A stretch of 63,990 nucleotides of DNA, counting the filler, from Basidioascus undulatus (Eukaryota), in assembly GCA_000826855.1 (NCBI GenBank). It is 4 parts of 4 records of this genome, joined end to end, with 100 filler letters (N's around TTAATTAATTAA, not from the genome) between each part and the next. Parts side by side here need not be neighbours in the genome. Positions count along the whole stretch, not along the records: positions 1 to 29,835 come from JTLS01000121.1; 3 more parts are not named here. The stretch is one strand, 5' to 3'. Both the position numbers and the translations under genes were made by a program. Shown here in pieces: positions 3,331 through 63,990 of the stretch; the stretch's first letter is position 1, and each line of letters begins with the position of its first letter. A model generated the notes under the pieces. That model was not told the origin of the DNA. It did no database searches and worked only from the letters and a program-made list of their open reading frames with translations.

Positions 3331-5813
3331 CTAAGCGCCGTCCTTGCCGAGTGCCCCCTCGATCACCTCTAGAGCCCGCATCACTTCCTCATCGCCCCAC
3401 CTGCGTCCGACGACTTGAAGGCACAGTGGAGCGTTCTCAAACACCTCCGACGCATCTGAGTATCGCAAATGAAAAGAAATCAGAGCTTCGTGCAATAAAA
3501 CTGAAGGCGGCGCAGGGGGGCAGCTTTGTGTACTCACAGGCCTCATGGTTGATTCGGTCGTGCTGGACGAGCGGCTGGAAGTTTTGGTCCACCGGGTCAA
3601 GCTCCGCAGAGGCGCGAAGCGGTGTTGGAAAGACTGCGCAGGGGTAGTCGAGCAAGTTCCACTGAGCAGTGTACCCCCAGTATTTCCTGTTGTAGGCAGC
3701 GAGAAACGTCAGATCGTTGCAAGTGAAAACCACACGGCAACGTACGCAGTGTCATGAGCAGGCGCGGGGCCAGGGCCAACAGGACAGAGAACCACGTCGA
3801 CCTTCGAGGTATTCCAGTGCTTGAGGTAATCTTTCCGCTATATAATACAATTTGCACAAGAGTGTCAAGTGCTCGGTTTTGCACACATGGCCCAAGCTCT
3901 ACGTACGTAGGCATCCCGTCGGACATGTGCCTGTGGGAGATCGAAGACATCGTATCAGTACACCGAATGAATACAAGAGACAGCAATCCAGACGCACCTC
4001 CCACATCTCGTGCTGTGTGTGGTCTCTAGCCGGCTCAAGCACCCACTCTGTCAAGGGAAAGAGCGGCTCGCCCGTCTCGGCAAGGATCTCGCGGATTCGC
4101 TTCCCGCCATCTGGGAAGTACAAGTCGCGCTGCATGCCAGCGTTGCATCAGTTATCGGCGCAAGCGGGCAAGCGGTTCTTTGAGATCTAGACAAAAAAGG
4201 CTGAAAGCGTACGATGATATCGTAGCCCTTCTCATGTTCCCACGGCTCGAAGTCGACAAGCTCGATGTTCCGAGTCGCTCGCAGCGCATCAACCGCCCAG
4301 CGCAGCGCCCGCCGGATCGGGGGCTGCGGAACAACAACGCGGTCGTCCCACATGACACCGACTCGAAGCTTGCGGTTCTCCCGCTCCCAAACTGCGCCCG
4401 CTGGATGAAGCGCCCAGGGCTTGTCGGAGAGCAGCGGGTCGTTCAGGTGCGGCGAGGCGGAGAGAACGGCCGACATGAACAGAGAGACGTCGCGTGCGGA
4501 GCGGGCCATCTATGTACACGAGAGATATCTCAGTTCAGGTAGTTGGAAAGTGCGATAAATAGGGAAGGCAGGATTTACAGGACCTGCGACCGCCACGATG
4601 GAGTCACGCCCGGGCTGGGACTGGCGAAGACTAACTGTCAGAACATGATTTCCGGTTTTAAGTCGAGGAACTTACCGATCGAGATCCGCTGGCGGGAACG
4701 CGGCCGATAGTTGGACGCAGTGTGTATATACCGCAGCACGCGGCCGGAGAGCTATCCCAGAAGTCTTGGCTATGTCAGTCACCCCTCGAACAACCCCGTC
4801 CTCAGTACAAGGAACGAACCGGACAGATCCACCAATATCAGCTGCAAAGGAGAGATATTTAGTCGGTGTTCGACAAAGGTGTTCCAAAATACCCACTTCC
4901 TACTCCCAGAGGCGAGCCTCGCATTGCTATGAGGGCACTTTCTCCTCCAGAACTTCCTCCGGCGGTGAGATCGCGGTTGAACGGGTTGAGGGTCCGACCC
5001 TGTATGAGAGGGGGGACATCATCAACGGTCGCTGTTCCGGAGGGAGAAAGAGCGGTGTACATACCCAGAATGAGTGGCTCTCGAGGTGCATCACCGTCTG
5101 AGGCAAGTTGGTCTGCGACACGCCTCTCCGGTAAGTTTCGGTAGCTGAGGATAAGGCCAAGGCGGCCACGTCTACCTTGCAGTACAAGATCGCCCCTGCA
5201 TCCCGCAAGATCTGCACCACTTGCGCATTCTCCTTGGCCACCTTATGGCCGATCCAAGCCGTGAAAGAGCCCGACGTCTCCTTGCCAGTGACATCGAAGG
5301 TATCCTTTGAGAGGACACATTCAGCTATGTCAGAACTGTAACGAAGCAGTCTGGGCGTCGGCTTACCTTTATCGACACCGGTACCCCGTGCAGCGCACCA
5401 ACCGGCTTCCCAGTCTTGGCTAGATGCTCGTCGAGCTTCTTTGCATCCTCAATTGCCTCGGAGAGAAAGAAGTCGGTAAGACAAGAAGTCTTTACGAGCT
5501 CACGTCAGCATCGTAAGATCTCATCAGTGGAATTCAGCAGACGTACAAGTTGGTGCGCAATGGCGGCCGTTTTTCCCACAGCCTCAACGACCTCAACCGC
5601 CGAAAACTTCTTCGCAAGCACCGCATCCCTGATGCCTGTTGCATCGAGCTCTACGATGTCAAGTTGCTTCGGTGTGAGCAGTCCGCAAGTGGCCGGGATG
5701 GACGAGACGTCGCGCGAGAGGTCGGAGAGCGTGGATGGCAGAAGCAAGGCCGCTGCCTGCGTTGCTTGGAGCACCCTCGCGCGTTGGGCTTCAGCGATGT
5801 TCTCCCAAGACAT
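3331..5813 (-). CDS. Amidase-signature family enzyme (fungal acetamidase/general amidase), multi-exon
   Basis: MSWENIA..., LHGVPVSIK, GAILYCK/TNLPQT, TAGGSSGGESAL, DIGGSVR, WNLLDYPCAVFP, LQVVGRRWGDEEV. Confidence 0.93.
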
Positions 5814-6114
5814 GGTGTTGTTGTTGGAAGAAGAAAGAATGGGCGACGGGGCGGGTTATGTGCACGATAACGAGAGCCGGTACCGTCGGAAGATGAAAGC
5901 CGAGGTGCCGTATCGGGAGACGCTTACTCGGTAGATAGTGATTGAATATGCGTGCTTCTGAGAAATCTCGAGAAGTTGATAAAAAACAACGACGGTTAAT
6001 CCTGCCAGTTAATCCAGGTTCATCATTATGCCCGAGCTTCCAGTGTCGTAAGGAGGGTGAAGGGGACATGTGCCCGAAGGCGAAGACAGTGCCTCTCTCT
6101 CTCGAGACCCTCTC

Positions 6115-6337
6115 GCTGCCCGACACGTCTGGCTGTCGTATTTCGAGAACGCGGTGATCCACCATGGATACGGTGATCCGATTACTGCGCTCGGACGCTG
6201 TGCCGGGCATAGACCAGACGGTTACGCTGGTCATGCCGAAGCTTGCAACGGACTTGTCTAGCACACAGCGACGGAGTCATGCGCATTTGCTAAAAGACAG
6301 CGATGCATCAAAGCCCTCCGGAGACACTCGACACGCC
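6115..6337. repeat. Flank X: diverged inverted repeat of 16160-16380
   Basis: Both copies give near-identical conceptual translations (MDTVIRLLRSDAVP...SKPSGDTRHA vs MNTVIRLLRWDAVP...SKPSGDTRHA) on opposite strands. Confidence 0.85.
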
Positions 6338-6507
6338 TTACTTGGTCATTATAAAGTCTCCCTTCTCATTACCGTCTTCCACAGCGACCCGACACCCGAC
6401 ATCCCGAATTGTCGAATTGGCGCCCTCCAATGAAGCAGGTACGGTATCCCTTCACGTCTCTGCACGATCTACACGCTCAAATATATTCCAACGATTACTT
6501 GGTCATT
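6338..6507. repeat. Two copies of the STI1 terminal codons (ttacttggtcatt at 6338-6350 and 6495-6507) bracketing a diverged copy (6354-6494) of the STI1 3' flank 9002-9106
   Basis: Shared blocks with 9002-9121: aagtc(t/a)cccttctca, cgtcttccacagcgaccc, ttcacg(t/g)ctctgca(c/t)gatct, ttacttggtc. Confidence 0.75.
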
Positions 6508-9106
6508 TTTACATACTCTCCACTTCCAATGCTTACAGCCTCAGCAGGCGATTCGAGTCGCGCAGGGCTGCCTGCGCCCCTTGACTGGCAGTTCCTTTCC
6601 CTCACCATCTGACGACCGACCAGACTGTTGATCACAAATGGAAGACAATAAGAGCCATTGAGATGTGCAATTCTTCAAGCAGCCGGCTCGCCCTCAGACC
6701 TAAAGCTCCGCCCTCGCGTCTTTCCGCAACCACGCCTTTAACTCGCCCTCACCCACCACTTTCTCCACAAGGCCCACGATCGACTCTTCCATTTCGAATG
6801 AGAAGTGCAGCATGTCTGTGACAGAGATATACGCGGCAGCGAGCGATACTGTTTCATGGCGGAGAGAATGTGCCTCGACGCGCCAAGGTACTCCATCGCG
6901 TCCGGAATGTCGGCCGTGTCCAACAAATCCCAGCTCCACGACGGCACCTCCGAGTCAGGCGGGAGACTGGCGACCCCTGCCTCCCGCCAGAAGCGCTCGG
7001 GAAGGCGCTGCTTCGCATGCTTGCCGTAGCTGAGCAGCAACGCGGGCTTGCGCCTCGCGAAGGCGTGGCCGTATGCGCGGATCGGGCGGAGTGAGGGCGA
7101 GTCGGAGGTGATGCGGAAAGATGGTCGAGAAGAGAAATGGACCGTCCGGAGGGATTGACCGTGAGGGAGGCCGAGGCCGACAGTCGAGACGCGATGTTGG
7201 CGTTGAGCATGGAGTGGTTGTCCAGGTGCCCTAGTTGCAAGTTGATCGACGGGTCGAGGATGTCGCAGAAATGCCCAGCGCGGTGATCGTGGTCGAGGAC
7301 GTATTTCTTGAGGGGCCGTCTTGTCAAGAATCAGACCCGCCATATCGGACTATAAGAGAATAACGTTATTTATGAGGCTCATCTTGTTCACAGCAACGCA
7401 TCAGCTAACCTTTACGAGCAGCGCATCCATTACCGTTTGGTGCTTCTTATGGAACTCGTTGACGAGGTACTGGAAAGGAACCGGGAAGATATTCAGCGCT
7501 CTACGTAGCTGTTTCTGGACGGTACGTGGCAACGACACCTGCGAAGGCCTCCCGTGTGATGCTTCACGCGTGGAGATCTTCCCACGCACATCCCTATCCC
7601 TGCACCATCGCCTCCCACGCCGCCATCAGCGGCGCTTCGTCCGTCGCGCCACCAGCGTTGGAGATGTAGCCAGCAAGAAGCGCAGCGACGCCAGGCACGT
7701 CGAGACCGTCCCTCGCGTCGGCGATGTACCGGATAAGCGGTTCCGTGTGGTTGCAACTGCGCAGTGCTTTGTCAGTCTCGGTTTTTCTCGACACGCCGCC
7801 AATGGGGGCGCGAGGACGCTCGCGATCTGCGTCTCGTTGTCCGTGCGGTAGAGGTCCTACATGGCGAGCGCGTACTCTGCACGGAATTGGAACGGAACGT
7901 CAGCATGAGAAAGATGTGCATATAGTCTTATGGGATGCACGAACTGATGTAGTCCTGTCGTGAAACAACCGCGCCGAAGTACGTGTGCTGACGCATCCGC
8001 GCGTGCCGATTGGGGCTCCAGCTCTGCACGTGATCGTCTCGCCGTTCCTCGAACTTGTAGCTCGGTACGACTCCGCTGATAGCCTGCTGTGCAGTCGCCA
8101 CAAAGACGCTACAAATTTGAGGCAGTCAGCAGGAGCTTTCGCAACGCTACATCGATGTCTGCAGAGACTCACTGACAGGATAGGCAGAGCCAGCCATCAT
8201 GACAATGACGGTCTTGGCGGCAGAGGAACAGAGGGAACTCGTTCTTGCCGCGGACGTACTTGACGTGCAAGGGGCCCGTGCAGCTGACCCATCCGCCCCC
8301 GCAGAGCATCTCGGACCCGGCTTGGATGGTAGCGACCAGGGCCGTTGGTCGTTCGGCCACAGCGCGAGCACGCCCTCAGCCTCCGCTAGAGAGCATGGGT
8401 TCAGGTCGCTCAGCGCGTGAGCGTAAGTCATCCAAGGTGCGCTCGCGAAGATCGCCGACGAGCGACTGCAGGAGATATCTGCATGGGAAGTGATCAGGAT
8501 GCCGACGGAACGGAAACTGAGCAACTCGAGAACCGTGCCATGAAGTTTACGCACATGATGAGGCGTCGCAGGATCAGCGAGATACCGGTTTCGAGGTGGA
8601 TGATCGGCTGCAACGCAGCATCGCGCCCGTCCTCGCCTTACGTGCTCGATGCTGAACGTAGCGCGTGCGCGCGAGCTCATCGAGTCGGAGGGCGCGGTCG
8701 CTCTGGAGGAAAAGCGCCTTGCGAACGAGCCTAACCTGCCGCGACCGGAGCTGCGCGGCGAGATCCTTCGAGTTGCGGACGACGAAATCGTTCAACTCGA
8801 AAAAGAACCGCTTGCGCGGTTTTGAATGCCGAGTATCGCGCCCGTACGGAATGACGTAGGAGTCGCCGACGCGCGATGTCGAAGAGACACAAGAGGTCAA
8901 ATATTATAGGGCAGTCTGCTTTCGCGGCATCCTCAGTCGTCGACTTACGCGGCGTGCGTGATTTCGCCAATTTTCGGAGGAACAAACTGTTACATATGAG
9001 CAAGTCACCCTTCTCAGTACGCAGTGCCGTCTTCCACAGCGACCCCGAAATCAAGCAGATCTTCTTTCACGGCTCTGCATGATCTTCATTCTACATGCTG
9101 CGAGAA
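6508..9106 (-). mobile_element. Putative site-specific insertion at the STI1 stop codon
   Basis: Bounded by direct copies of the STI1 terminal codons and carries the nuclease-like pseudogene. Confidence 0.4.
6700..8900 (-). pseudogene. Decayed intron-containing gene with a Cys cluster and an endonuclease-VII-like (His-Me) motif
   Basis: Spliced reconstruction gives LCGGGWVSC...FLCRQDRHCHDGWLCLSC and SDMAGLILDKTAP/LKKYVLDHDHRAGHFCDILDPSINLQLGHLD. There are in-frame stops at 8376-8378 (TGA) and 7857-7859 (TAG) and several frameshifts. Confidence 0.6.
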
Positions 9107-11950
9107 TTACTTGGTCCTTATGATTCCGGCGGACAAAAGCTTCTGGATCTTCTCCCGAACAACCGGGTCTGAGTGAACGAGAACAGGCAGTCAGCACTTG
9201 TTGATCAAAACATGAGCTGGCGAAGAACGCACTCTTCATGTGGTCCTGCAGCGCACGCGGGTCCGACTGTGCCTGCTGGAGGATCTGCTGCATGACGCTG
9301 GTGGATGGGCGCCAAAACATCTCGTCAGTACGTGTGGGGGCTAGAGGGAAGAAGGAGAAGCGAAGCACGGATCCTGCATGATCTGCGCGACCTCCGGGTC
9401 CCTCATCGCGCGCTGGAGCGTCTGCTCGTCCGTCTCGCCCTCGCGCTCCTTGTACAGCGCCTGAGACACCTTCTGCATCCACTCTTGGATCTCGCGCGTG
9501 TGCTTGCGCTCCGTGTCGGCGTCCTCGGCCTGTGCGATCGGTGCCCGTCAGCCTGCGCGTGCGGTAAAAATCGTCCAGGGTGGCCAAATAACGTACCTGC
9601 TGCAGAGCAGACATGGCCTTGGTGTACTCGCGCATGCCGAAGAGGACGGTCGCCTTGCGGATGTAGGCCTTGACTGTGGGCATCACGCGAGCAAAATCGG
9701 GTGAGCGATAAGTGACGAAACCGAGGACAGCAACGGCACGCACCAAACTTTGGGTCGAGCTCGATCGCCTTCTCCACGTCCTTGAGCGCCTCAGGCAAGG
9801 CCGCGAGCTTCGTGTATGCGGACGCGCGGTTGTTGTAGCTCCGCGGGTCGGACGGGTCGCGCTTGATCGCTTCGGTGTAGTGTTTGACGGCAGTCGCGAA
9901 GTCACCCGCCTGCACAACACGTCGTCAAGATAGCAGCAAAGGGTCGGTATCAAGGTCTTACGCCGCCTTCGGGAGACAATGAGCGCTAACGAACCTTGAA
10001 AGCCTTGTTGCCCTCCTCGCGCTCCTTCTCCGCCAGCTCAGGGTTGATGTACGCCTGCTTCTCCGCCTCCGACTTCTTCTTCTCCGCCTGTTTCGCAAGC
10101 CCATGCCCGTTACCCTAATCAGCGCAATGACCCTCAAGCAAGGGAAGCAATTTCGACCACGCACGTCACGCAGCTTGCCAAGAATGTCGGGCGTCCGGTG
10201 CTCAGTGAGCGACTTATTGAAGTACTTGATCGCGTTCTCCAGGTCGCCCTTCTTCATGTACGCCGTGCCAATGCGGCCGAACGCCCTGTGCGCGCGCGCG
10301 AAAAGCAGGTCAGGTCAGAACATGCCAGCTGCAAGTCAGAAGCGAAACAGGCAGACATACTTGGCGATGAGCTTGAAGTCCGCGCGGATGTTCCGACCCT
10401 CCTCGATCGCCTTCTCGCACGTCTCGATGCACTTGTCGTGATCGCCCTGCTCGAAGTAGACGGCTGTGAATCGCCCATCGCCTGGCTGTCAGGCGACTGG
10501 TCCGACACACAAGAGGCAAAGTGAGGCACGACCAGAGAACCGGACGCACCAGCGAGGTTAGTCAGGTACGAGATGTCGGTCGGGTCGACCTCCCAGGCCT
10601 TCTCGTAGTGCTTGATGGCCTCGTCGAACTGGCGCTTCTTGTACGCTTCGTTGCCCTTGAGCTTCTCCTCCTGCGCCTCCTTCTTCGCCTTCTTCGCCTT
10701 CTTGCTCTCGTCCTCCTCCTCGGGCTCCGCCTCCGGCTCCTTCATCTCTACCTCGGGCGCCTGCGGCTGCTGCGGCGGCGGAGGCGAGGCGACTTTCTCG
10801 GCTGCGGGCGGCGGGGGCGGGGTGGAGCTAGATTCGGAGGGGGCGTTGAACCCGGGAGGCATTTCGTTCGAGCCTTCGGGTCGCTCGAACGCTTGCATGT
10901 CCACGCCCATGAGCGCGCCGAGTACCTGGGTAGGCGAGCCAGGGTTAGTGCCAGGGAGCACAATTGACACCGTGATCAGAAACTGTTGTACCTGGATCAT
11001 TCGCGGGTCTTGCAGCGCGTCGCTGCCCAGCTGCGGGTTCGCCTGAAGCGCCTTAAGCTGTTCGCGTGGAGCCACCCAAGCCTTCTTCATCAGTAGCTGT
11101 CCATCTGCCCATATGCAATAGAAGGCCGAACGGACCTTGTTGACAAAGGCGGGATCAGCGAGAAGAGGTGCAGTCTTAGGGTTGGACGCGAGCTTTGCGA
11201 CCATGTTGGGGTCGCTGAACATCGCGCCGATGCCGTCGCCGCCCGGCCCACTCTCGGACGCAGCTAAAGCGCCACAGTAAAACCCCCCCCCCTCGTGAGC
11301 ACACATTCTGTGTATCCCATGAGCCGGAAAGAACTGAGTGCCACGTACTCTGATCCCGCTTGACCTCCTCTAGCCCACGCTTCAACATGGCGTCATCAGG
11401 CGCGAGGTCGAGTCCCTTCTGATACGCGCCCACCGCGTCGTCGTATTGCCGTGCTCCGTGCAGGGCGGCACCGCGACGAGCGTAGCCCTTCGGCCAAGAC
11501 GGATTCTTCTCGATAGTCTGAGAGCGCAGGGTCAGTCCAGATCTTTGCATTGCTCGTGTGCGCCGCCTGCTGCCCTCCGTTCGGTATCCTCTAGCGTGAA
11601 TTATCACAAAGGACGAACAAGCATCTTTGTACCTTCCCACACTTGTAGTACAAACAACACTCTGCCCCAGCTAGAAAGAAGCCGGCACTCACCTTGTCCG
11701 CGTCCTCCAGCGCCTTCGCCCAGTTCCGCAAGCCCGCATAACTCGCCGAACGGTTGGAGTAGAGGACATGGTTGTCCGGGTCCTGCTCGATAGCCTTTCC
11801 GAAAAGGTCGACGGCCTCGTCGTACTTCTTTGCGGAGAACGCAGTGTTGCCCTGCGCCTTCAAAGCGGCAGCCTGCAGGCGTCCAAGAGATAATTGTGAG
11901 CTGAAGGCCTGCCGGTGGTGCTGTGGGTCCTAGCCACGCACATCAGACAT
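9107..11950 (-). CDS. STI1: Hsp70/Hsp90 co-chaperone Sti1/HOP (TPR-DP-TPR-TPR-DP), multi-exon
   Basis: [104 protein letters not shown]. Confidence 0.96.
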
Positions 11951-12744
11951 GATCAGTGGGTTTCGAGAATGTCAGTGCTTCTTGAACGATACGAGCGTGA
12001 AGAAAGATGAACGGCGATGATGGCGAGATGGAGACAGGCAACGTCGAGCACACCGAGCGAGATCCCCATGTGCTCGAGAACGTTCCCGCGAGGCCCAGAT
12101 TAATTCCCACGCTCCGGCGTCTTCTTTCACTTTGGGCATCATTTTCAGCCAATTTTCAGCTTACCCATGGCTACACTGAAGAAACCGCACCTATAATAAG
12201 CTTCAATCAGAGGGCGTATGGTTTATACCGGCCCATGATTGGCATCCTGGCGCTAGCACATCAGCGCCACCAGACGGGTACTTACAGGTTGAAGCACACG
12301 CACTTCTTAACCAGTGCGCACTAATAACTGTCGACTTTCTTCAGGCTTGTCAGACAGCTTTGGAACTTCCACATAAGAGAACCGCAGTCTCACATCAAAA
12401 CAGACGTATTCCCTTCAGGTGAGGAATGCCTCGCGACCGAAAGACAATGCCAATGAGGACTCTGCGCACAGCTTTCGCTGCCGTCCTCGTGAGAGTCTTG
12501 CGGGTCAGCCTGCTCTCATGCCGACTCCCTTATCGGACCATCTAATGCTTTATTTTATCTTGCTGCTTGCCGATAAGCTTCTCCATGGCCCTGAGACTCG
12601 GCATCGCACGTGCTATTGAAACAACGATGCCATGCTGTCACACTCCCAACTTTCTGTGCTGCCGCCGTTGCGCTGCTGCCTTGCTTGCCAAGTGCTGCCG
12701 CCCTCGACCCTTAATACCCCCTGCTACATCTGTACTACCTATTC

Positions 12745-15616
12745 ATGTCGGCTACCCCGCGCCGAGAGCTCCGGAATGCCACTCAACAGGCGACGGCCGT
12801 TTCCGTAGACAAGTGCCGCCGCTGGCTGCGTAAGAGCCTGCAAGCAGCGAACAGGGAAGGGGATCATGAGGGCGGCGATAGCGGTTCGGAGAGCAGCGAT
12901 TATGAGGATCAGCTGCCCACGAACCGGTACGCATTGCTTGCTGTCTTTGAGCAATATTCCAAATGCTGACAGAGGGTTGGCCACGGGGCAGTTGGGCGCC
13001 ACTGCTCAGCGGACTTCTTGTCCCTTTCGCTATCCTGTAAGCTCTACAATGCCCTCAATGAAATTCAAGTGGGTTTGAAACGTTTCAACCAGTCTCGAGA
13101 CAGGGGGCCTCGTCGGCCGGTGGTATGTGCGTACCGCAGACGATGCCAGTGGTCACAACGACATCGTGGAAACGCGACCGAATCCCGTCAGTACGGACAC
13201 TTCTTTGACCACCGGTCGACTGTTCTCTCCTCTGTTCACTAAAAGACTCATTCCTGGCCGACAGTCCTGCGCTTCGGACTGGCCGTATCCCTCTTCTGCG
13301 CTGTAACCGCGAGCGTGTGCCTAATTCTCCGATACATCGAAGTGCGAGCGAAGGCGGCTACGAGAGGTGCTGTGATCGCTCTAACGATCCATGGTGAGCC
13401 ACCAAATCCATGCAATCCACCTTCCCCGGCTTATGAAGTTCCGGCATCAAGACCTCATAAACATCATCGCGGTGAGCCGCGCCTTATCTGCTTCGGGCCC
13501 ACCTGCGCCAATCTATCATCGCGCAGCTGTCGATCTTCGCCGCAAAGCATGCTCCTGACGACGGATTCACCTTCGGTCAAGTGCGTTGTTGTCCACTCCT
13601 TGTGTGAATGTAAGCTTACCATGGCTTCCTCGCAGCCGTTCTGGATGACGTTCGCGTCGACGTGCGTAGCTACAGCGACGAATATCATGCTCGTTTGGGA
13701 CCAGTGGAGGACCAGGGGTATCCCTGAAGGACGTGAGCCCAGCTTCCCACTTGACATTGGGTAGTCGGTGAAGCTATCTTCTCCCCAGGGACTGCGCTCA
13801 ATCCGAAGGAGCGCTATTTGCTGAGCACAGTCATAGTGTTCCTCGGATACGTCGGCTTCGGCGGCTTGTTTTATTCGCTGTTACTGAAGACACTTTACAT
13901 GGATGCACTGTATTGTAAGTGCATCCTTTACTCTCGACTACCCTGATGCCATTATGATTGCAATACAATCCGAGAAACAGTCGTGGTCTGCACAACTACC
14001 ACTGTGCGCCGCCTTTGCTCCTTACATACCACGCTTGGGGTTAATGCTGTGTTCTTGGGATCATAAGGCGGGTTTCGGGGACATAACACCCACCAATTGG
14101 GAAGGCAAACTGTTCTTGTTCTTCTACGCATTAGTATGATTGCTCCTTATACCTTTGCCAAGAACACGGGTGGGCGACATGTTGACGAACAGCCTCCTAT
14201 AGGTCGGAATTGTGCTCATGGGTTTGTATCGCTGTTAAATTTCTCACACACATTAGGTGGCATGTTGAATGAGGTCATTCGGGGACAGGTATGGCGATTC
14301 AAGCAACTCAAGAGACCATAGCGCTTTACTTCGAGAACGGGTCCGTTTTACTCTCTTGCACAACGTCTCCAAATCCCCAATCATGGACACACCCCCATCT
14401 TCAGGTATCGACGCAGACGCGAGCGTATCGTCCGGCATCACTTCGAGCACAAGCACCGCCCAGCAGCCGATCGAGAACGGCTACGCCAAGTGCAGCGGCG
14501 CTTAGAAGAAGGGCAGCTCCCATCGCACACGCCGACACCACTGCGCCAGTCAATGGACGACCGAAGTCGTCAGGGTCGTCCTGGGAGGACGCCGAAAGCA
14601 AACAGCGGACCTCGTAACATGATCGAACGCACCGCCCGAGCACGCGCCCTCAAGCGTCGACTCGAAGAGGCCACGGAAGATGCGGATGACTGCTGGCCTC
14701 GTTTCAAACGGCAATTAATTTGGGAGAGAAGAAAGGAATATTGGAGGAGGGTAGGCCTCCCCTCTCTGCTGTTGTAGGATTCCAGCAGCTGACTAGTAGC
14801 AAGCACGTCTGGAAGTTGGCTTTTGCCATCACAATCTTTCTCATCTTCTGGTTGGTATGCCAGGAAGTTGCGGCTCCGTTTGCACTCCCTCTTCTGACCA
14901 CCAGTTCCTTTCCAAGGGTGGGGCGGCGGTCTTCATGCGAACCGAGGGCTGGAGCTATTTCAACGCAATGGTGCGTGTTGCACGTTGCTGCCAGTTGCTT
15001 GTGGCCGCGATCTGACCATACCTGTTTGAGATAAAGTACTTTTGCTTTGTTTCCTTCACTACTATAGGGTAAGCTCTTGTTACATAGGTTGGTATGCGTT
15101 TGTTGAAAAGAGATGAAAACAGGTTCGGCGACTTCTCGCCTCGTACTAGTGCTGGACGAGCGTTCTTCCTCTTCTGGGGACTGCTGGGAATCTCTATCAT
15201 GAGTGGGTCGATTTTATTCATAGTTAGGACCACAACTGCCCTCGGTTTCACACCCAAATACAGCTATACTCATATCCGTTCTGTCGGAGTCGTGGACGAA
15301 GCGGTACAAGCAGGCCGTGGGTGACGATCCCGAAGACGATAATCCGGTGCAGGACGTTCAACACGGCGGCGAGGAGCCGACGCCGCTACCATCACCGTTC
15401 CACGGCCTTACGCCTTTTATTAACGAGATACAGGAAGAAAAAGAGAGAAAGAGGAGCGAGGGCGAGGTTGATGGTGACGAAGAGAAAGGGGAAGGGCTCG
15501 GATCGGACGCACAGGGGAAGAACGAGGATGCGGAGAAGTTCGAAATAAGCCCAAGCAGCCCAACAAGTGGCACGGCATTGCTTTCGCCGACGGTTTTCAA
15601 AGAGGGAGAGGAATGA
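12745..15616 (+). CDS. TOK1-like two-pore outward-rectifier K+ channel, multi-exon
   Basis: Two pore loops (TTTT/AGFGDITP and FTTIG/FGDFSP, followed by GRAFFLFWGLLGI) plus extra N-terminal TM helices (PFWMTFAST). Gene ends approximate. Confidence 0.85.
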
Positions 15617-15962
15617 GGAACGATTGTGGCTGAATAAGCCTCTCGCAGGAACTTGCTTTATGCATTCATCGCATGTGAGCGTCTGGCATGTCAATGTGTG
15701 GCAAAGTTTCTGCACGACAATGTAGGACATTTGCATCTTCTTAAAACAGGATTGGAGAAATGGCTAAGATTGTGTGTTCCCAGTAAGAAAAGGGCACAGC
15801 TCGAGATTGTCGGATGAGATTGTCAAGAGGACAGATGCAGACAAAGGCGCTGCCAGAAAATAACGACCACGAGCAGTGAGAAAATGACCACCACATGGTC
15901 CCGTCTAGTTTCATTTTCTTCTCCGGCTGATAAGATTGTCACTGCTGTCGCTACCACCAAGA

Positions 15963-16159
15963 TCATGCAGCAGATCCTCCAGCAGGCGCAGTCCGACCCG
16001 CGTGCGCTGCAGGAGCACATGAAGAGTGCATTCTTCGCTACCACAGGCCACATGCCTTAATCACAAAGTGCTGATTCCCCGTTTTTGGTTTCTCAGACCC
16101 CGTAGTGAGGGGAAAGATCCAGAAGCTTGTCTTGACTGGAATCAGTCAGGATCAGGTGA
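15963..16159 (+). pseudogene. Inverted duplicate of the last two STI1 exons, with their intron
   Basis: [41 protein letters not shown] matches 9296-9107 on the minus strand. It has a 1-nt insertion before the TGA and no upstream exons. Confidence 0.85.
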
Positions 16160-16380
16160 AGCGTGTCGGGTGTCCCCGGAGGGCTTTGATGTATTGCTTT
16201 CGCTGAGCAAACGCAAGTCGGGCGGTGTATGCTCGACAAGCCTGTTGCAAGCTCGAAGCATGACCAACACAACTGTCTCGCATACGCTAGGCACAGCGTC
16301 CCAGCGCAGTAATCGGATCACCGTATTCATGGTAAATCCCCGCATCCTCGAAATACAACAGACAAAAGACTCCGACAACA
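16160..16380. repeat. Flank X copy (inverted repeat of 6115-6337), directly after the duplicated STI1 stop
   Basis: gcgtgtcgggtgtccccggagggctttgat matches the reverse complement of 6307-6336 with a few substitutions. Confidence 0.85.
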
Positions 16381-16433
16381 TGGGGCCAAGCAACCTACGG
16401 AACGAGCCCGCTCTCCGCGCTCCGTCTCCCTTC

Positions 16434-19400
16434 TCACCTGTTCCGCTCGTCGACTGTGCACAGGCAAATCGGAAGTCAGCCGACTGGCAAGCGGCCGCAG
16501 TCACAGGAAGCATAATGGCAGATTAGTCGTCTAACTCCATACGCACGGTACTGCTGCTTCCAGCTCCACTCGAGCTTCTCGACGCGCTGTGGATTGGCAG
16601 ACACTCATCAGCGTCCGGTGCCTCTTCGCTTCACTTGGCCACTTACCGTCCGTGGTACTCTCCTCGACAAGCCCGCAGCGATCTGATAGCCCACGTTCAG
16701 TGCCCGTCCTCGCTTCCAGGGACCGAAAGAGGGAAGAGAACAGTTAGACACACGAGCGCCGCGACCCCTCCAAAGCGTAGCACCCACGCAACGCCGTTCG
16801 AGCCGACACGCATGCCCTTCCCGCCGCCGCCCCCTCCGCCCGGCATGTCGTCGTCCCCAGCGAGCGCTTGAAACAGATGAGCATGCGGCGATGATGATTC
16901 GCTGGCTGAGGCGGCTGCGACGATACGGAAGATGATGGATGAGACGATAGCGACCTTCACACGACCCGCGCGCCATGTAAGCGGCTTGCGGCAAATCAAG
17001 ATTGAGGGAGACGCAAGCGTACGATGAGCTGTGACGAAACGATCGCGAGGTTATGGATGCCGAGCACTGTCCCGCCCGTCATCTTCGGTGCGTCCGCGAC
17101 GTCCTCGTCTTCTTCCTCCTCGTCTTCCTCAACGACCTCCTCGTTCACGAGTCTCCCATCCCTGCCGTACGCAGCATACTCCCCGCGTTCAGCGTCAGGC
17201 AAGAGCGGTGCGCACTCGCCGAGGGCTGCCTCGGCGCGGCGGCGACCGCTGATGGGAGAGGCAGGCGAGTAGGCAAAGAGGGGGCCGGGCATGCTCGCTG
17301 CGCGCCGGATGGGCGTGCGCGAGGGAGACAGAAACGTCGGCTCGGAGTTAGTTTCGTCTGCGAGCTCTTTCAGGACCTCGCCTGCGGAGGAAGGGAAGGG
17401 ATTCATGGGATCGTGAGGTCGTTGGCGTCAGCGTCTAGCTGCTGACAAGTTGAGCGGGAAAACTTACCGAGAATTGCGAACGGGACCCAGCACGAAACTG
17501 CCCAGGGAATCCCGACCAAGGCCATCATGATCGTAGCCTGTTTCCTCCAGTGGGTCCTGGGTTGTCAGCACCGGCTCTTTCACCTTCTCCCTTCACGACC
17601 CCCGATTCCTTTCACGCACCCCTTGAACCGACTGGATCCAGAACGTCGAAAACATGCATCCGGTGAAGAGGAGCAAGGCGCCAGTCCAGATATTGCGGAG
17701 CGTGAACGGGCTATAGCGACGAGCGAGGGTGCGGCGAGCAAAAGTGAGTCTTAGCGTCCGGCTCGCCTTGTTGGAGGGCAGCGGGGAGAACGGGACCCAC
17801 TTCTTATCAAGCTTTGGAGGATGCTCAGTCGGCGACGAGGGCGGTTCAGGCTGGTGTTTCGAAAGGTGTGGCACTGTACGTGGACACGAAGAACAATGTT
17901 GAGTTTCATTTTCAGCAAGACTGGCCCGGACCTGATTGAAGGAAGCGGCGCACGAATGGTCCCCGCAACCATGGCGACTGTCAGTTGGCGTAGGCCCAAC
18001 CCATCACGTTCTCTCTGTCAGCCGGATCTTCTCACAAGCAAAACCGGCCAACGCACCGATCGCATACAGCAACAGCGCAAACGATCCCGCCCTCGTCGCG
18101 CGCTCGGGATCGGGCAAGCGGCCCTTCGAATCGGCCATGATCTCGGCCATGTAGGTAGTTGAGTAGAAGAGGACTGTCGTATCAGGGTTTTGAGAAGGGC
18201 CAGCCTCAGATCTTGGGACTTTATGCAACAACCGGAGAGGTAGGACGGCAGAAAGAGCGTACAGGGGAACCTGGGTGATACTGTTTGTGAGCGTATGCTC
18301 CGCAAAGAAAGACAGCTGAGTAAGAAGGGTAGCAGCTTACCAGCCCATGAACGCAAACACTTGGACGTAGCATACCCGCCTCACGGGCTTCGGTAGGTGC
18401 GTAACGGCGTAAACGATCGTACGAAACATGTTACTGATGACTCTATGTTCCGCCAAACCCCGAAAAACAACATCTCGCCTCGTCAGTAGCTCGGTTCCCC
18501 TCGGCTGATGACAGGGCACTTACCCGCCCGGCTTCTCCTCGTCTGGATCCCTCGGCTGCTCCTCCTGCGTCACGCACGTGATGACCACGGTGACCGTGAG
18601 GAAAACAAGTCCGAAGAGACAGAGCTTGCGGAACTGGCCGTCACCGAGCGGCTGGAGCCAGCGGATCGCATCGAGGTCGACGAAGCCTGAGTTTGTTTCC
18701 GCAATCAGCGTCAGTAGCGCGAGAGGAGGTCAACTAGAGAGGGTCATAACGAAGACTGACCAAGAGTGTATCCAACAATATTGGCGGCATGCGTGAACCG
18801 CCCATGCCACGCCATTGCTTGGCTCTGCTGTGGCCCGGGCGCGACGTCGAGGACGAGTGCGCGAAGGGACGCTTGGAGGGCGTTGAGGCAAAAGTCGAGG
18901 ATGACGAAGGAGGCGATGGCGATGAGGATGGTAATTGTGTGTACCTGAAACACGTTGGAGATAGCGGTCAGCTACATCGGACAAACGGGAGCAAGAGGAA
19001 TGGAAGAGGCAAGGGAGCGGAAGGCAACAGTCACGGCCGGAAGGACGCACTCGGGAAGCGAAGACTGGATCCCAATCGCCCTCGCCTGATCCGGCGAGGT
19101 TGACGAGCAAGCGAGCGACCTCGCGCGCGAAGGCGAGGAGGAGCATCGTGAGAATAATGCCGGCTGTTCCGCCCGCCTGTTCGAGCGCATCCCACCATAC
19201 TTCAGCTCAAAATGACCAGCGGGTGTAGTCATGAAGGGTAGTAACCCACGATGTAGGCTCTCCGTCTGAAGCGTGAGGGTGATGCGTCGGACAGGGCGCC
19301 AATGACAGGTTGCGTGAAGAGGCCTGAGATCGGGCCTGCCATCCAGACTATTGCCGTCGCTGTTTTAGGTACGTCGAGGGAAAGCAGGAAGGGAGTTCCG

Positions 19401-29935: not shown

Positions 29936-30016
29936 AAAAGTATATAGACGGCATTCAAGAGCGGTTTCGCGGTGGCGGAAGGGGTGGATCGCACCTCGCA
30001 GGTTGGTATGAAAGCG
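29936..30016 (+). repeat. 81-bp perfect inverted repeat, left copy (truncated by the contig start)
   Basis: Exact reverse complement of 34478-34558. Confidence 0.93.
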
Positions 30017-31744
30017 GCCTGTGTCCGCATAAATGCTCGACCCGTTTACGCGTCCATACCCGAAAAGAGGCCCCGGAATAACTTATCCTACACCATTGAC
30101 ATGGGTACCCACATATCGTCCAGCAAAGAAGGTCAATTAAGGCGTCCCCGTCTGGCCCGGCCGGCCATCCGATGAACCGAAAGGCTGGTGTGCTCCTGTA
30201 AAGATTTGCGTTCAAACATTTCACATAGTCCATTAAACCGACTAGGAATTATGTAAATACCACATGCACACAAGTGTGACATAGTGCCACCAGGCTCGCA
30301 AAATGAGGCGCAGCCACTGAATGGCGCGGGGAGGTGCAGCAGGGATCATCTGGGCCATTTCCCGTGTCAGTCGTTGGCCCGAGAAAGCAGGTGTGATCAA
30401 TTTATTCTTACGGGGAAATCTTGAAGAGCATGGACTGCTTCAAGATGCACGGTAGGTACTTTGCCTTCACGTTTGTCAAGCAGGTGAGGATGAATGTGAC
30501 CATCGACAGACTTAAATCTCATACAACCCTATGCCAGCTCCAGAGTTTTAGCTGATCCCTTTTCGGGCCTAGCACTTTGAGCCTTCCGCGCTCAATGTTG
30601 CATTCCTGGCACTACCGTCCTTTCAGGCGGTTCAACCCACGTTCAACATACCTGATGCAACAACAGCGCAACAAAGTCCTTTTGTCTTTCGAAGTATTTT
30701 AAGTGGTTTAAATAGGACTACAAAGATACGACTGGTGTTTGAAGAAATTCGAGAGCAGAGAAGATGCGGACGCGAGGCGTGGACGCGCAGTTTCCGCTGT
30801 TAAGTGATTACCTGCTGTAGCGCTACCGCGCCCCTACTGACTACGCTTCTTGCGCAGAGAATCTGAACGGGTTGTTTGAGTCTCAAATGGCTTTCGCGGG
30901 GTTTCTTTCTCGCTCAAGCCAGGTCGCTCGAGCCACGTCCCAGGTAGCCCAAGGGCTGCACCTCATGAACGGGGATCTGTCCCGGCGCGAACGTGCTGAT
31001 CAGTCTGACGAGTTGGCCGTCTTATTTTTGGAACTAATACCGTTTCCCTAAATTAATTTTCCTACTTTATCTCTATACGCAAATTCAAAGAACAGGGCAT
31101 GCTGACGTGCGCAGAGGAGTTTTATGCAGTGTAGGCCATGGGTGAATATTGCTTGTGGACACATGCATGCGGTGGTCCAAAAAAGGCATATATGGTACAG
31201 ATTCAGAGTATGTCCTAGTATGGGTAAACGGGAAAGTGAACACGCTTGGGAGGAAAAAGGTGGAGAGCAGAATGCGGAGGGCGCGCCCACCTTGTACCTT
31301 GACGCTGGTTGTCTTCTTTCACGTCTAACTAAAGGTATACCACCAAAGTTTCTTGAATCAAAAGGCAACAAGTCCTCGCCTAAGACTGATCTACACCATT
31401 GCTTGAGCTTTTGAAGGGTTGGTCGGGACGTAGCAAATGAATGACTTCCTACGAACTTGGCAGCCTTTGAGTGCATTGCGTCTCTAAGTTCTGTTGTGTC
31501 GTCGGGTTGTGACTACACCATCCGACGACAGAGTAGCAGTAATGCTTTGCCCTGTATCGACAGAACCCTCCATGAACTGACGGCGCAACAGTACGAACGA
31601 AAGGTGTAGCGGCACAATCAGAACAACGTGTCATTGCGAGATGTCAATACTCGCATTTGCGCTTGGCAAAAGGCCCGTCCACGACATCCAAGAGGGACGA
31701 AAACGAAACACCATAGCTTTCGAGCCCCACAGATGCCCAGACGA

Positions 31745-33177: not shown

Positions 33178-34477
33178 CTTTTGGTCTGGAAGATGTTGGG
33201 AAAGAAGGGTAAGGAAGAGGACGCTGAGAAGGAAGGACTGCCTTGGAAGAAGCCCGCCTTTCGCCTGAAGAACTACGGACCTCAAGCATGTTTCTCAGTA
33301 CCTCGCTAGTACTCTTATACCAGTTTGTATTTTCTAGAGATTCCATTCCAGTCTTTTTCTTATGTGGCAAACGTGTCAAGAGGTGAGGACGGTGGACCCA
33401 TGTCAATCACTGCGGGCCTCTGGGTGTGTCTCTATCCAGTCCCTCAAGACCCTCGCGACATTCCCAAGCCTTAACATAGTCCCAACACGCATGATTTAAT
33501 ATTGTTATTGCAACATAGTATTGCGCCTGGCTTGACGTCATCTCACTCCGCCTTATCGTCTGTGTTTGTCTTCCCTTCAGTTTGATTTCACGTTCCGGGG
33601 AGTCCGTTTGAGTCCGAGAGGGTGTGGAGAATTCGCACCGCCTCCTCTTCAGCTCCACTACAGCCCCACCCTGGTGATCAAAAGCTCTATCGCATCCATG
33701 TGGCCACCCCGCCACGTCAGACCCTCACGGCTCTTCAAACACAAGCCCCTGCATCCCCAAGCCATCATGCTACCCCTCCCGGCCCCTTCCAGCACGAACC
33801 TCCCCGACCGGACAACCAAAAAGCACACTTTCTTGGCATTCCCGCATAGCTCATGCCTTGGCACCCGCCCCCAAACGTGGCACTGCACCCCATGCAGCCG
33901 GTCGTGCTTGGGCTCGCCGCTCGGAACAGCATTCTTTGAAGACCGACTCGTCGATTGCACAACACTCGTCCCCGTTCTCTTATCGTCATCATCACGCCGC
34001 ATCTTTTCCCGTGCCTTTCTTTGAGGATCCAGCCGAACTGCATGACTACGAGGAGGAGGAGAAGGCGCCGTCCCCCAGCTCCTCCCCACGTCAAGCGAGG
34101 TGGACGACTTTCTCCGCTCCCTCAAGCACGATGCTGAGAGCTGGGCCGCGCCTCCAACCCTTCCGGATGAGAGGGTGGTGAAGCGAGCGCCCAGGCGGGC
34201 GGACGAAGGGACGGTGCGAGAGAAGGGAAAGGGGCGGGAGCGAGTCGTGCCCTCCGACGCGGAGTAGAACGCTCCAGGCGGACGCAGCCGGGTGTGCGGG
34301 CCGCACCCGCCGTCATGAGGTGGGAGGGCGCGCCGATGGATGAGGACGTGGAAATGGGACCGTCGATGGGGCAGATAGGGATGGACATAGACTAGCCAAT
34401 GTGCAGCTTCCAAATTGAAGAACACCATGCGTGCTGAAGTACACAGAAGTTCCTAGGGCTGGCCGGGCGCGGTGGGA

Positions 34478-34558
34478 CGCTTTCATACCAACCTGCGAGG
34501 TGCGATCCACCCCTTCCGCCACCGCGAAACCGCTCTTGAATGCCGTCTATATACTTTT
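34478..34558 (-). repeat. 81-bp perfect inverted repeat, right copy
   Basis: Exact reverse complement of 29936-30016. Confidence 0.93.
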
Positions 34559-61317: not shown

Positions 61318-63990
61318 ATGCACATCTTACATACAATCTTCACGCTCTCTGCTCTCTTTGAACTCTCCGCTACAGTTTTATCCGCTATAGTTGAGTGTTC
61401 AACTCACGGGCATGGCGCTCATCATCCAACTCACGGGCATGACGCTCATCATCCCTACGACTAGGTGGACGGCAGCGTTTACCCCAAGGGCGCAAACCAC
61501 ATTCCCTCAAACGGCGGAAACGCAGCGCCTCCCGGGAGTGACTCAGGCATGGTCCGCGAATACAGCTTCAACGTCGGCAATGCCGTGATTTCCGCCGATG
61601 GCTTCCCACGTTCCGCCACAGTCGTCAACGGCATCTTCCCCGGGACGCTGATCGCCGCCAACAAGGGCGACACCCTCAGCATTAACGTTACCAACAGCTT
61701 GACCGACCCGACGATGCGCAGGAGTACTTCAATCGTGAGACTTTTCTTTCCTTTTACTACCCCGCCCTATGCCACAATGTGCACTGAATGGTCACGTTCT
61801 CTCTATCCATCCAGCATTGGCACGGGCTGTTCCAAAACACGACAGCTCATGAAGATGGTCCATCTTTCATCACGCAGTGTCCTGTGAATGTTCATTGCAC
61901 CCCATTCCGGGAGCGCAGCTGAACTTTGCCTATTCACAGATCGCACCTGAAATGTCATACACGTACACAATTCCGCTCGGTCAACAGACGGGCACCTTTT
62001 GGTACCATGGTCACCTTTCAGCGTTCGTCATGCTCCTTCAGTCTATGTATCATTCGTGGGATCATCTGTTGAAACCTACCACTTGCTCCCGCAGGCAATA
62101 CGTTGATGGCCTCCGTGGTCCACTGGTAGTCTACGGTGGGTATTTGTCTCTCCATTGATTTTCCCAGCCTTTTCCTGATCTTTCAATACGTGAGGCAGAT
62201 CCTGATGATCCACTGGGGCACCTTTACGATATCGATGACGAAAACACCATCATCTCACTTGGCGATTGGTATCATCAACCTTCGCTGCCTCTAGTGGAAC
62301 AATTCTTCTCGGTACGTCTTGGGGCGTCCCCCTTCCCTCCGTCTCATTCTTTCCCTTTCGCTATTTTCCGTGTGATATTTGCGCTGACCTGGATTGCCTT
62401 GTTCACTTGCTTTGTCCTCGTTTCCGTACCCTTTTCACATAACCCACTCTAGCCTGACAGCAACGGTGATGAGCCAGTTCCGGACGCTGGCACTATTAAC
62501 GGCCTCGGTCGCTGCCGCAGCGGCAGGCCAGAATGCCCGTCTGACGCTCCGCTTGCTGTCATCAATGTTCAGCAGGGCAAGCGCTACCGCATGCGCGTCA
62601 TCAACAACTCTGCTTTTGGGCACTTCCGCCTCAGAATGGAGGGTCACCGGATGACCGTGATTGAAGCGGATGGCATCCTGCACCAGCCCTACACCGTCGA
62701 CGAGATTGATATTTATGCCGCACAACGGTACTCCTTCGTTGTCAGTTGTTTCCTTTCAAGTGTCGTCCCGCCGTACCATTTCTGACCTATATCACTTGAA
62801 TCCGTTCAGCTTGAAGCAAATCAGCCTGTGGGCAACTACTGGATCACCGCGCCCATGGAAGTCAAAGGGGCAAGTCGGAACCGCAACCGCAAGTAGCGTT
62901 CCACCCGCCCTTTTCTGTTGCTTATGACGGGACACTTACCCACCTCAACACTCTTTTTTATGGCTCATAGTCGACAAAGACCGTGTACTTGCAATCCTGC
63001 GCTACGAAGGGGCTCCGGACGCCGAACCAACCACTCGGCCAGACATGCCGAACACTAATGTAAGTCTTAATTCTACTCTTTCTCCTGACCAAGTTCTGAG
63101 GAAAAGAGAGTGACCCCATTACGCCGAACCAACCACTCAGCCTCTCATTCCGAACACTGATGTAAGTCTTAATTGTACCCTTTCTCCTGATGAAGTTCTG
63201 AGGAAAACAGAGTGACCCCACTCCCCAAATAAAACTTTCAGGCGCGCTCTTCCGATATCTTGGAAACCGCGGAAATAGAGCTTGGTGCTGTTCGAGCTAC
63301 CTTGGTCAAGCAAGGTGCAAGTTCAGAGATTCTCTTGGCGCACGACTCGCTTGTTGCAGCCTTCAAAGCAACAGAACAAGACAAGGAGTGTGATGAGGAC
63401 ACCGATGATGTGCCTCCGCCGCCCCCTTCGTTCGAGAACGCTGATGTAAGTCTTTCATTCCTTCCTCTGGTGGCCGCCAACTGGCCTCTTTTGGCACGCT
63501 GACTGAAGTTTTTTCCCAGCCTGCGACCGTCGCCGTCATTGTTGAGGCTGAACGTCAGCTCAAGGAGGTTGAAGCGGCGCTGGTTGAAGAAAACGCGGAC
63601 GAGGAAGTGATCGCGACCCAGCGCAAGATTCTTGCCGGCTTGGATGCCATTCGTACTGGGACATTTGAAACATCCACGTGTAACAGTGACAACAGCAGCT
63701 TTATCAGTCTCAAAGAGTACAAGCTCGTACCTCTTATCGATCCCGGCCCGCCCGGTGGTGCCGGTCCTGCCGACCACGTTGTCGAGCTCGATTTTGATCG
63801 GTAAGATCCCTTGGCAGTGCCTCCATGCTGATCATCACTGGCTGATCAATCTCTCCAAAACAAGTTCTACCGATGAACAGGGCAGAGTTGCTTGGCGCAT
63901 TAATGGCATCCAGTTTGTTTCTTTGCATCAGCTGGCCTTGCTTTTCTGATCCTGCAACTTACTTAAATCAATCAATCCCCCAGATTCAGG
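61318..63990 (+). CDS. Laccase-type multicopper oxidase, runs off the window end
   Basis: Signal peptide MHILHTIFTLSAL..., NGIFPGTLI, STSI/HWHGLFQ, DGPSFITQCP, GTFWYHGHL, DGLRGPL, GKRYRMRVIN, IEADG, AQRYSFV, NYWI, AILRYEGA. Confidence 0.93.
63019..63220 (+). repeat. 102-bp tandem duplication of an exon end plus intron start inside the laccase
   Basis: acgccgaaccaaccactc...gtaagtcttaatt...gagtgacccca at 63019 and 63121. Confidence 0.9.

Follow-up and report, generated by a model that had tools for sequence, protein, structure and literature searches.

According to the excerpts cited here, the known homing elements of eukaryotic nuclear genomes use LAGLIDADG nucleases, and the WHO elements, described from a few budding yeast genera, form a third structural class (bioRxiv 10.64898/2026.08.13.744650). 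In brief, WHO elements occur in Torulaspora and Lachancea, where a LAGLIDADG and zinc finger nuclease cuts near the middle of FBA1 and the 3' half of that gene is replaced; cleavage and polymorphism between isolates have both been demonstrated (PMC7282813; bioRxiv 10.64898/2026.08.13.744650). WHO families also hold pseudogenes and off-target copies (PMC7282813). A different nuclease is F-CphI, a cyanophage protein and phage homing endonuclease, in which D101, H102, R110 and N118 set the DHHRN spacing and the arginine is required for DNA binding (excerpt of PMC6083498). Here we describe a 2.6-kb insert directly behind the stop codon of the co-chaperone gene STI1 in a 63,990-nucleotide stretch of the Basidioascus undulatus assembly GCA_000826855.1 (the window). 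The insert is a decayed nuclease cassette that had not been recorded before, and its layout suggests that it is plausibly a homing element convergent with WHO.

The locus lies on contig C235 (window positions 1-29835) of a 32 Mb assembly with 2992 contigs; the other parts of the window are joined by N spacers. GC content is 56%, introns are short and of the GT-AG type, and the end of STI1 resembles fungal loci of a metagenome scan, all of which suggests a basidiomycete-like fungus. We distinguish the following features.

9107-11950, minus strand: STI1/HOP co-chaperone gene, the host gene, ending in GIIRTK and stop (Pfam TPR and STI1-HOP_DP; 11 intron joints in RNA contigs).
9107-9116, minus strand: repeat copy 1 (GACCAAGTAA), the functional end of STI1 (exact match).
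9002-9106, minus strand: Y, the left end of an inserted unit, E1 (alignment to Y'; found at the STI1 locus only).
6700-8850, minus strand: endonuclease VII-like pseudogene with an uncertain 5' end (introns in RNA contigs, alignment to a paralog).
7241-7294, minus strand: D-H-x-H..(R)..N motif with F-CphI spacing (Pfam, phrog_423, spacing comparison).
6505-6699, minus strand: tail, at the right end of E1 (final 30 nt weakly similar to the 30 nt that precede repeat copy 3).
6495-6504, minus strand: repeat copy 2, a displaced STI1 end (exact match).
6354-6494, minus strand: Y', a diverged copy of Y, read as the remnant of a unit E2 minus its interior (alignment to Y).
6338-6347, minus strand: repeat copy 3, read as the oldest displaced STI1 end (exact match).
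6130-6337, minus strand: X, the original 3' flank of STI1, upstream of an amidase gene (167/203 aligned columns identical to 16160-16364).
15954-16364, plus strand: inverted copy in which X follows the last two STI1 exons without a gap, with Arg-TGA after a 1-nt insertion (alignment).

On the minus strand the order is thus STI1 end, Y (9106-9002), the 2.5-kb body, repeat, Y' (6494-6354), repeat and X (6337-6130), and every position given for these parts in the original prediction was confirmed. An own-genome search with one STI1 exon gave one match. The 10-mer GACCAAGTAA, the last 10 bases of STI1, is found exactly three times in the 64-kb window, at 9107, 6495 and 6338, each time on the minus strand. 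A target site of about 15 bp had been proposed; taken as 15-mers, both outer copies are indeed 14/15 identical to the third, but the exact core common to all is 10 bp, and 13 bp are shared only by copies 2 and 3. The three bases that precede the 10-mer are identical in copies 2 and 3 and different in STI1, and this 13-mer occurs only twice genome-wide. Two further copies of a 10-mer within 2.8 kb were found for 7 of the 54,070 10-mer positions of the contig, and two of the seven are the STI1-end repeat. Since the last ~10 bases of STI1 are repeated on both sides of the insert, STI1 stays intact. The amidase gene behind X is marked by a Pfam Amidase match at 4054-5242.

Y and Y' align with a score of 55 (53 without the repeat), and none of 1000 dinucleotide shuffles reached either value (maxima 27 and 32), so the proposed likeness of the two flanks withstood shuffled controls. 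Globally, 79 of 98 aligned columns are identical, with 50 further gap columns. The differences are concentrated directly behind the repeat, where 11 of the first 21 columns are identical, against 68 of the next 77 (Fisher p 0.00075; the boundary was chosen post hoc). Such a peak may be expected if a second insertion requires changed bases next to the cut site, or if the junction was untidy. A genome-wide search with the Y-core pattern gave two exact matches, Y and Y' themselves, and two with one mismatch, on C501 and C2552, which were rejected because the similarity fails to extend. The 30 nt before copies 2 and 3 are weakly alike (scores reached by 31/1500 anchored and 20/2000 local shuffles; a post hoc comparison), and neither resembles the sequence upstream of the STI1 end (585 and 132 of 1500 shuffles reach the scores). 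These right ends, together with the three bases common to copies 2 and 3, fit two units that have a right end in common, the outer one presumably deleted internally.

The order of events can be read from the inverted copy at 16 kb. It matches the last two STI1 exons at 78% and X at 79%, with zero bases between. STI1 and displaced copies 2 and 3 all end in AAG-TAA (Lys-TAA), and the 16-kb copy ends in AGG-TGA (Arg-TGA). For comparison we used STI1 loci from a one-exon metagenome scan, in which 98 loci were confirmed and 80 kept; these are distant relatives (identity at most 79%), with at least 3 kb downstream in 36 (29 distinct ends). The stop codon was located in 71 of the 80, the remaining nine being excluded from end counts. 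Seventy end in T-R-stop, one in G-R-stop and none in T-K-stop; arginine is thus found in 71/71, where the STI1 gene of the window has lysine (9107-9112). The insertion is therefore younger than the 16-kb copy, because STI1 and both displaced copies have Lys-TAA in common while the Arg end is kept at 16 kb. On the simplest reading, the 16-kb copy keeps the ancestral STI1 end and flank, and the repeats arose later. The original prediction took STI1-X for the empty site, and this argument stands: the 16-kb copy is older and joined directly to X, which supports its use as a stand-in, though it is a paralogous fragment and not an allele. Two successive insertions would give the same outcome as one insertion followed by tandem duplication and deletion, and the two histories cannot be told apart.

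The inverted position of the 16-kb copy could stem from a staggered-break inversion. Within it (15954-16160), the penultimate exon has kept 62/67 bases, compared with ~75% in the intron and last exon. By eye many of the changes in this fragment are silent or conservative, and it may have functioned for a time.

The insert carries an intron-rich gene of ~600 codons with an endonuclease VII (DHHRN-spaced) motif. That such a gene lies here had been predicted, and two profiles agree. The nuclease frame matches Pfam PF02945 (Endonuclease_7) marginally, at 23.9 bits against a cut-off of 23.6 (E 3.8e-5), and phrog_423 endonuclease VII at E 4.5e-5 to 1.4e-4. In a whole-genome search PF02945 scored 24.3 bits at this gene, and 0/14 control genomes gave a match. 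The motif reads D-H-D-H, with 9 positions from D to the Arg position and 8 on to Asn, a spacing identical to that of F-CphI. D-H-x-H and N are present both here and in the only relative found in the genome, a paralog on contig C57 that we call by the name of its contig; the Arg position holds Cys in the window copy and Arg in C57. Cys-rich segments lie ahead of the nuclease motif. DHHRN nucleases have a beta-beta-alpha-metal fold; a structure predicted for 75 residues here has a mean pLDDT of 45.5. T4 Endo VII has zinc-binding Cys pairs around the motif. Here these pairs are lacking: neither copy has a Cys between the Arg and Asn positions, and C57 has one Cys upstream.

The analysis concerns a single genome, for which three sequencing runs were available, drawn from at most two samples and possibly the source of the assembly. 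In each of two DNA runs a single contig covers 5500-17000 with 0 differences from the assembly, though both may have served to build it. The third run, X3 (listed 'DNA?'), yields contigs that skip five GT-AG introns in the insert body and 11 in STI1, and solely for this reason we treat it as spliced RNA. These contigs leave 8956-9339 and everything upstream of 8760 uncovered, so they are uninformative on the 5' end of the pseudogene, and they give no measure of expression level.

In the insert body the RNA contigs join introns 8479-8554, 8109-8172, 7877-7944, 7470-7538 and 7350-7409. Two extra introns, 7757-7860 and 6816-6883, are suggested by splice signals and by the paralog and are retained in the RNA contigs; the latter has a GC donor in the window copy and GT at the same place in C57. 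The spliced sequence from the RNA contigs contains no long reading frame. With the inferred introns taken out, four net frameshifts are left, near 8636, 7560, 7335 and 7120, as well as two to three stops: one near 8378, which could instead be two compensating shifts, one near 7596 and one ahead of the 7538 intron. That the frameshifts are errors of the assembly was rejected, as the three runs have no differing letters or indels where they cover the gene; they agree letter for letter, and the breaks are therefore real. The gene is a dead, yet transcribed and spliced, pseudogene.

C57 (~700-2960 of the contig, stretch L004) is also broken; its motif is split by a frameshift, and the endonuclease VII profiles give no match to it. 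It is colinear with the window gene from the first to the last homologous exon, with introns at matching places. The best blocks have 25/57 and 31/72 identical residues (~43%). Over 308 aligned codons, of which a few belong to weak blocks, identity is 62%, 62% and 41% at codon positions 1, 2 and 3. From this pattern and the colinear introns it follows that the family was once protein-coding and split long ago. The neighbour of C57, in tail-to-tail orientation, is a CASP-like gene, recognised by a weak CASP_C match. No homology was found between window 8780-9106 and positions 1-800 of contig C57. The insert is young and its only relative in the genome ancient; it was therefore not made by a recent duplication of C57, and its source would be another allele, another lineage or a lost locus. 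Five further C-terminal candidates in the genome, one of them weaker than the other four, failed against the spliced frames, and the two that were inspected are other genes. The own-genome searches are not exhaustive: two of them overlooked C57 itself, so a third copy was possibly missed.

Searches for the family elsewhere returned little. Word-index protein searches gave 891 candidates for a 203-aa frame (0 at E<=0.001), 582 for the two-copy motif alignment (0 at E<=10) and 2374 for the two-copy C-terminal alignment (0 at E<=1). A phmmer search of 1.84 billion representatives gave two matches at E ~6e-4, rejected as repetitive proteins without the motif. Scans of metagenomes and of viral contigs for the nuclease family yielded 325 and 32 candidates, respectively, of which none was confirmed. 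In the ESM Atlas the window nuclease reached PF02945 clusters at 0.79-0.81 only, a lead, and the C57 N-terminal frame reached nothing; among solved structures there was one match only, at E 1.8. These blanks weigh little because the queries were short broken frames. Some of the ESM Atlas PF02945 clusters are eukaryotic, contrary to the Endonuclease_7 row of a 2017 census, 330, 289, 3 and 0, if this is read as viruses, bacteria, archaea and eukaryotes, the column heads lying outside the excerpt (PMC5714182).

The locus is like WHO, as far as the cited excerpts describe it, in several respects. A free-standing nuclease gene, here a pseudogene, lies just behind an intact conserved host gene; host 3' ends are displaced from one fixed point, with the newest unit apparently nearest the host and the older one decayed; and the element is never spliced out of the host product, has relatives off-site and decays to pseudogenes. 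The differences are as clear. The nuclease is endonuclease VII-like, not LAGLIDADG with a C-terminal zinc finger; the host is STI1, not FBA1; the displaced piece is 10-15 bp, far shorter than the FBA1 fragments; and the gene has at least five spliced introns, in a basidiomycete-like fungus as opposed to budding yeasts. WHO clusters consist of several diverged nuclease genes; one pseudogene and a 141-bp remnant are present here. The insert is not a WHO member, because both the nuclease fold and the host gene are different. To F-CphI and the DHHRN nucleases, judged from the excerpt, it is tied by D-H-x-H..R..N at the same spacing, a PF02945 score over the cut-off and the phrog_423 match; it differs in being a spliceosomal fungal gene of ~600 codons, broken and without Cys between Arg and Asn. 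In open-access PMC and bioRxiv we found no fungal endonuclease VII homing element and no fungal element that targets STI1, as the original prediction had supposed for the latter.

We tentatively suggest that the insert is a fossil homing cassette, selfish and free-standing, which worked in the manner of WHO, with an endonuclease VII (His-Me finger) nuclease and the STI1 stop codon as its target. The sequence shows that X once stood directly behind STI1, and that DNA with the nuclease gene was inserted at STI1-X, with the last ~10 STI1 bases on both sides. In the proposed scheme the nuclease would then have cut empty alleles at the junction of STI1 end and flank, and repair from the filled allele would have copied the cassette; the filled allele would have been resistant since the new flank Y follows the stop. 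There may have been two rounds, the older E2 being represented by Y' and its right end, and the later E1 landing beside STI1 and displacing E2 outward. The gene then decayed during continued transcription and splicing, as its breaks and the RNA contigs show, and C57 is taken as a deeply diverged relative at a different site. In favour of this suggestion, the insert sits at a point where STI1 would come through cutting and homologous repair undamaged, and its cargo is a gene of a nuclease family. The youth of the insert beside an old relative, the off-site relative C57, the fact that both members are pseudogenes, the F-CphI spacing, the WHO layout, the divergence of Y and Y' directly behind the repeat and the likeness of copies 2 and 3 and of the two right ends may likewise be counted for homing.

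Several observations weigh against homing. There is only one genome, which holds neither an intact gene copy nor an empty allele, and homing cleavage is putative. The only nuclease gene of the supposed cluster is one pseudogene with a 141-bp remnant. Y and Y' differ by 19%, close to the 18% between X and its 16-kb copy, which could also result if the sequence was duplicated locally not long after the origin of the 16-kb copy. The Pfam match is marginal and the motif lacks the cysteines noted above. The 10-bp repeat could equally be the trace of an ordinary insertion. C57, the sole other family member found, lies away from STI1, and nothing in it resembles Y, Y', X or the tail; for Y and the tail, 58 to 203 of 300 shuffles reach the scores. 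Its frame reaches ~115 codons further upstream than that of the window copy, in an extension that matches no known family, and the window copy may therefore be a 5'-truncated piece of a longer gene. Homologues beside other STI1 stops, looked for as a mark of targeting, did not appear: in the 80 other loci, all distant and only 36 of them with at least 3 kb downstream, there was no tblastn match to either copy, no motif pattern and no Y or X similarity. The opposite expectation failed as well, as none of these loci carries the gene as an ordinary syntenic neighbour. None of them has a twice-repeated STI1 end; in three of the 71 loci with a located end (L054, L055 and L058) the terminal 10-mer is repeated once, but the likeness goes no further and was put down to chance.

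Many of these points suit a one-off capture. Here a staggered break at the STI1 stop would have been filled with a gene, or a 5'-truncated piece of one, that came from another lineage or from a locus since lost, and a 10-bp duplication was left behind; Y' and the third repeat would stem from a later local tandem duplication with deletion, and the motif is incidental, without homing. We regard this as a serious possibility. The possible truncation relative to C57, the absence of a second nuclease gene at the STI1 locus, the similar divergence of Y/Y' and X/X16, and the lack of any family in protein, metagenome and viral searches all agree with it, and the 16-kb duplication and inversion indicate that the spot rearranges anyway. 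It requires, however, that rare events struck several times, independently of each other, within 150 bp of a single stop codon, and that a nuclease gene arrived in one of them by chance; no close donor copy is present in the assembly, and the divergence peak directly behind the repeat is left unexplained. Overall, capture is nearly as likely as homing, and with the present data the two are inseparable.

The insert could also be a general mobile nuclease or a poison-type driver gene that leaves short direct repeats on insertion, enters at many sites and does not favour STI1; Spok and the transposon-derived fungal nuclease toxins are the models for such a driver. A second copy at another site and the Cys-rich segments ahead of the motif point this way. 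So does a 14/15 direct repeat that brackets C57 at a distance of 2413 bp (L004 584-598 and 2997-3011), compared with a span of 2612 bp at STI1, but this repeat is borderline, its score being reached by 30/600 shuffles and 8/181 real flank pairs, and is a hint only. As just two copies were found in the genome, and the third repeat and Y' are left unexplained, we consider such an element unlikely.

Other classes of mobile DNA fit less readily. Cryptons and Starships are tyrosine-recombinase elements that use att sites, and their short direct repeats restore the target as the repeats do here. No recombinase or transposase family, however, matched any of 11 reading frames of the body, where only PF02945 passed in Pfam (broken frames reduce the sensitivity), and the att-type integration first proposed is not supported. 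Mutator-like transposons make target duplications of 9-11 bp, and the exact 10-bp repeat around a gene-bearing insert would suit non-autonomous cargo of such a cut-and-paste element, like a Pack-MULE. We find this quite improbable, since the insert has no terminal inverted repeats (5/30 end bases match, best 15-mer 8/15) and no transposase, and neither its ends nor Y are dispersed in the genome. Rfam gave no match at E<=0.1 over 5800-17000.

It is highly improbable that the gene is an ordinary, recently dead resident behind STI1 and that the 16-kb copy, rather than being an ancestral empty site, lost the block by deletion between repeats. In favour of this, the gene is intron-rich and spliced, with intron positions common to C57. 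But if copies 2 and 3 were old non-coding sequence, they should not have the derived Lys-TAA of STI1 when Arg is still found at 16 kb, and 0/80 other STI1 loci carry the nuclease gene.

If the homing account is right, this would be a second case, in a different fungal phylum and with a different host gene and an unrelated nuclease fold, and insertion behind a conserved gene with a regenerated 3' end would prove to be a general, convergent strategy. A simple screen would then be to look for orphan nuclease genes that are flanked by repeats of the last codons of a conserved gene. With some doubt, we speculate that this is an independent origin of the WHO strategy, by a nuclear, spliceosomal endonuclease VII-type element of a basidiomycete that homed repeatedly into the STI1 stop, and that an arms race turned the near-invariant final Arg to Lys and diversified the bases behind the stop. 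Whether homing is wrong or not, the locus adds a fungal gene family, rich in introns and with an endonuclease VII motif, of which there was no earlier record.

Two further repeats were seen in other parts of the window. An 84-bp inverted repeat (29936-30019 and 34475-34558; 98.8% identity) has its arms 4.5 kb apart, the left arm starting at a contig end; frames of at least 120 aa show no obvious transposase, and the structure could be a terminal inverted repeat element or an assembly effect. At 63019-63220 there are two 100-bp tandem copies with 89% identity.

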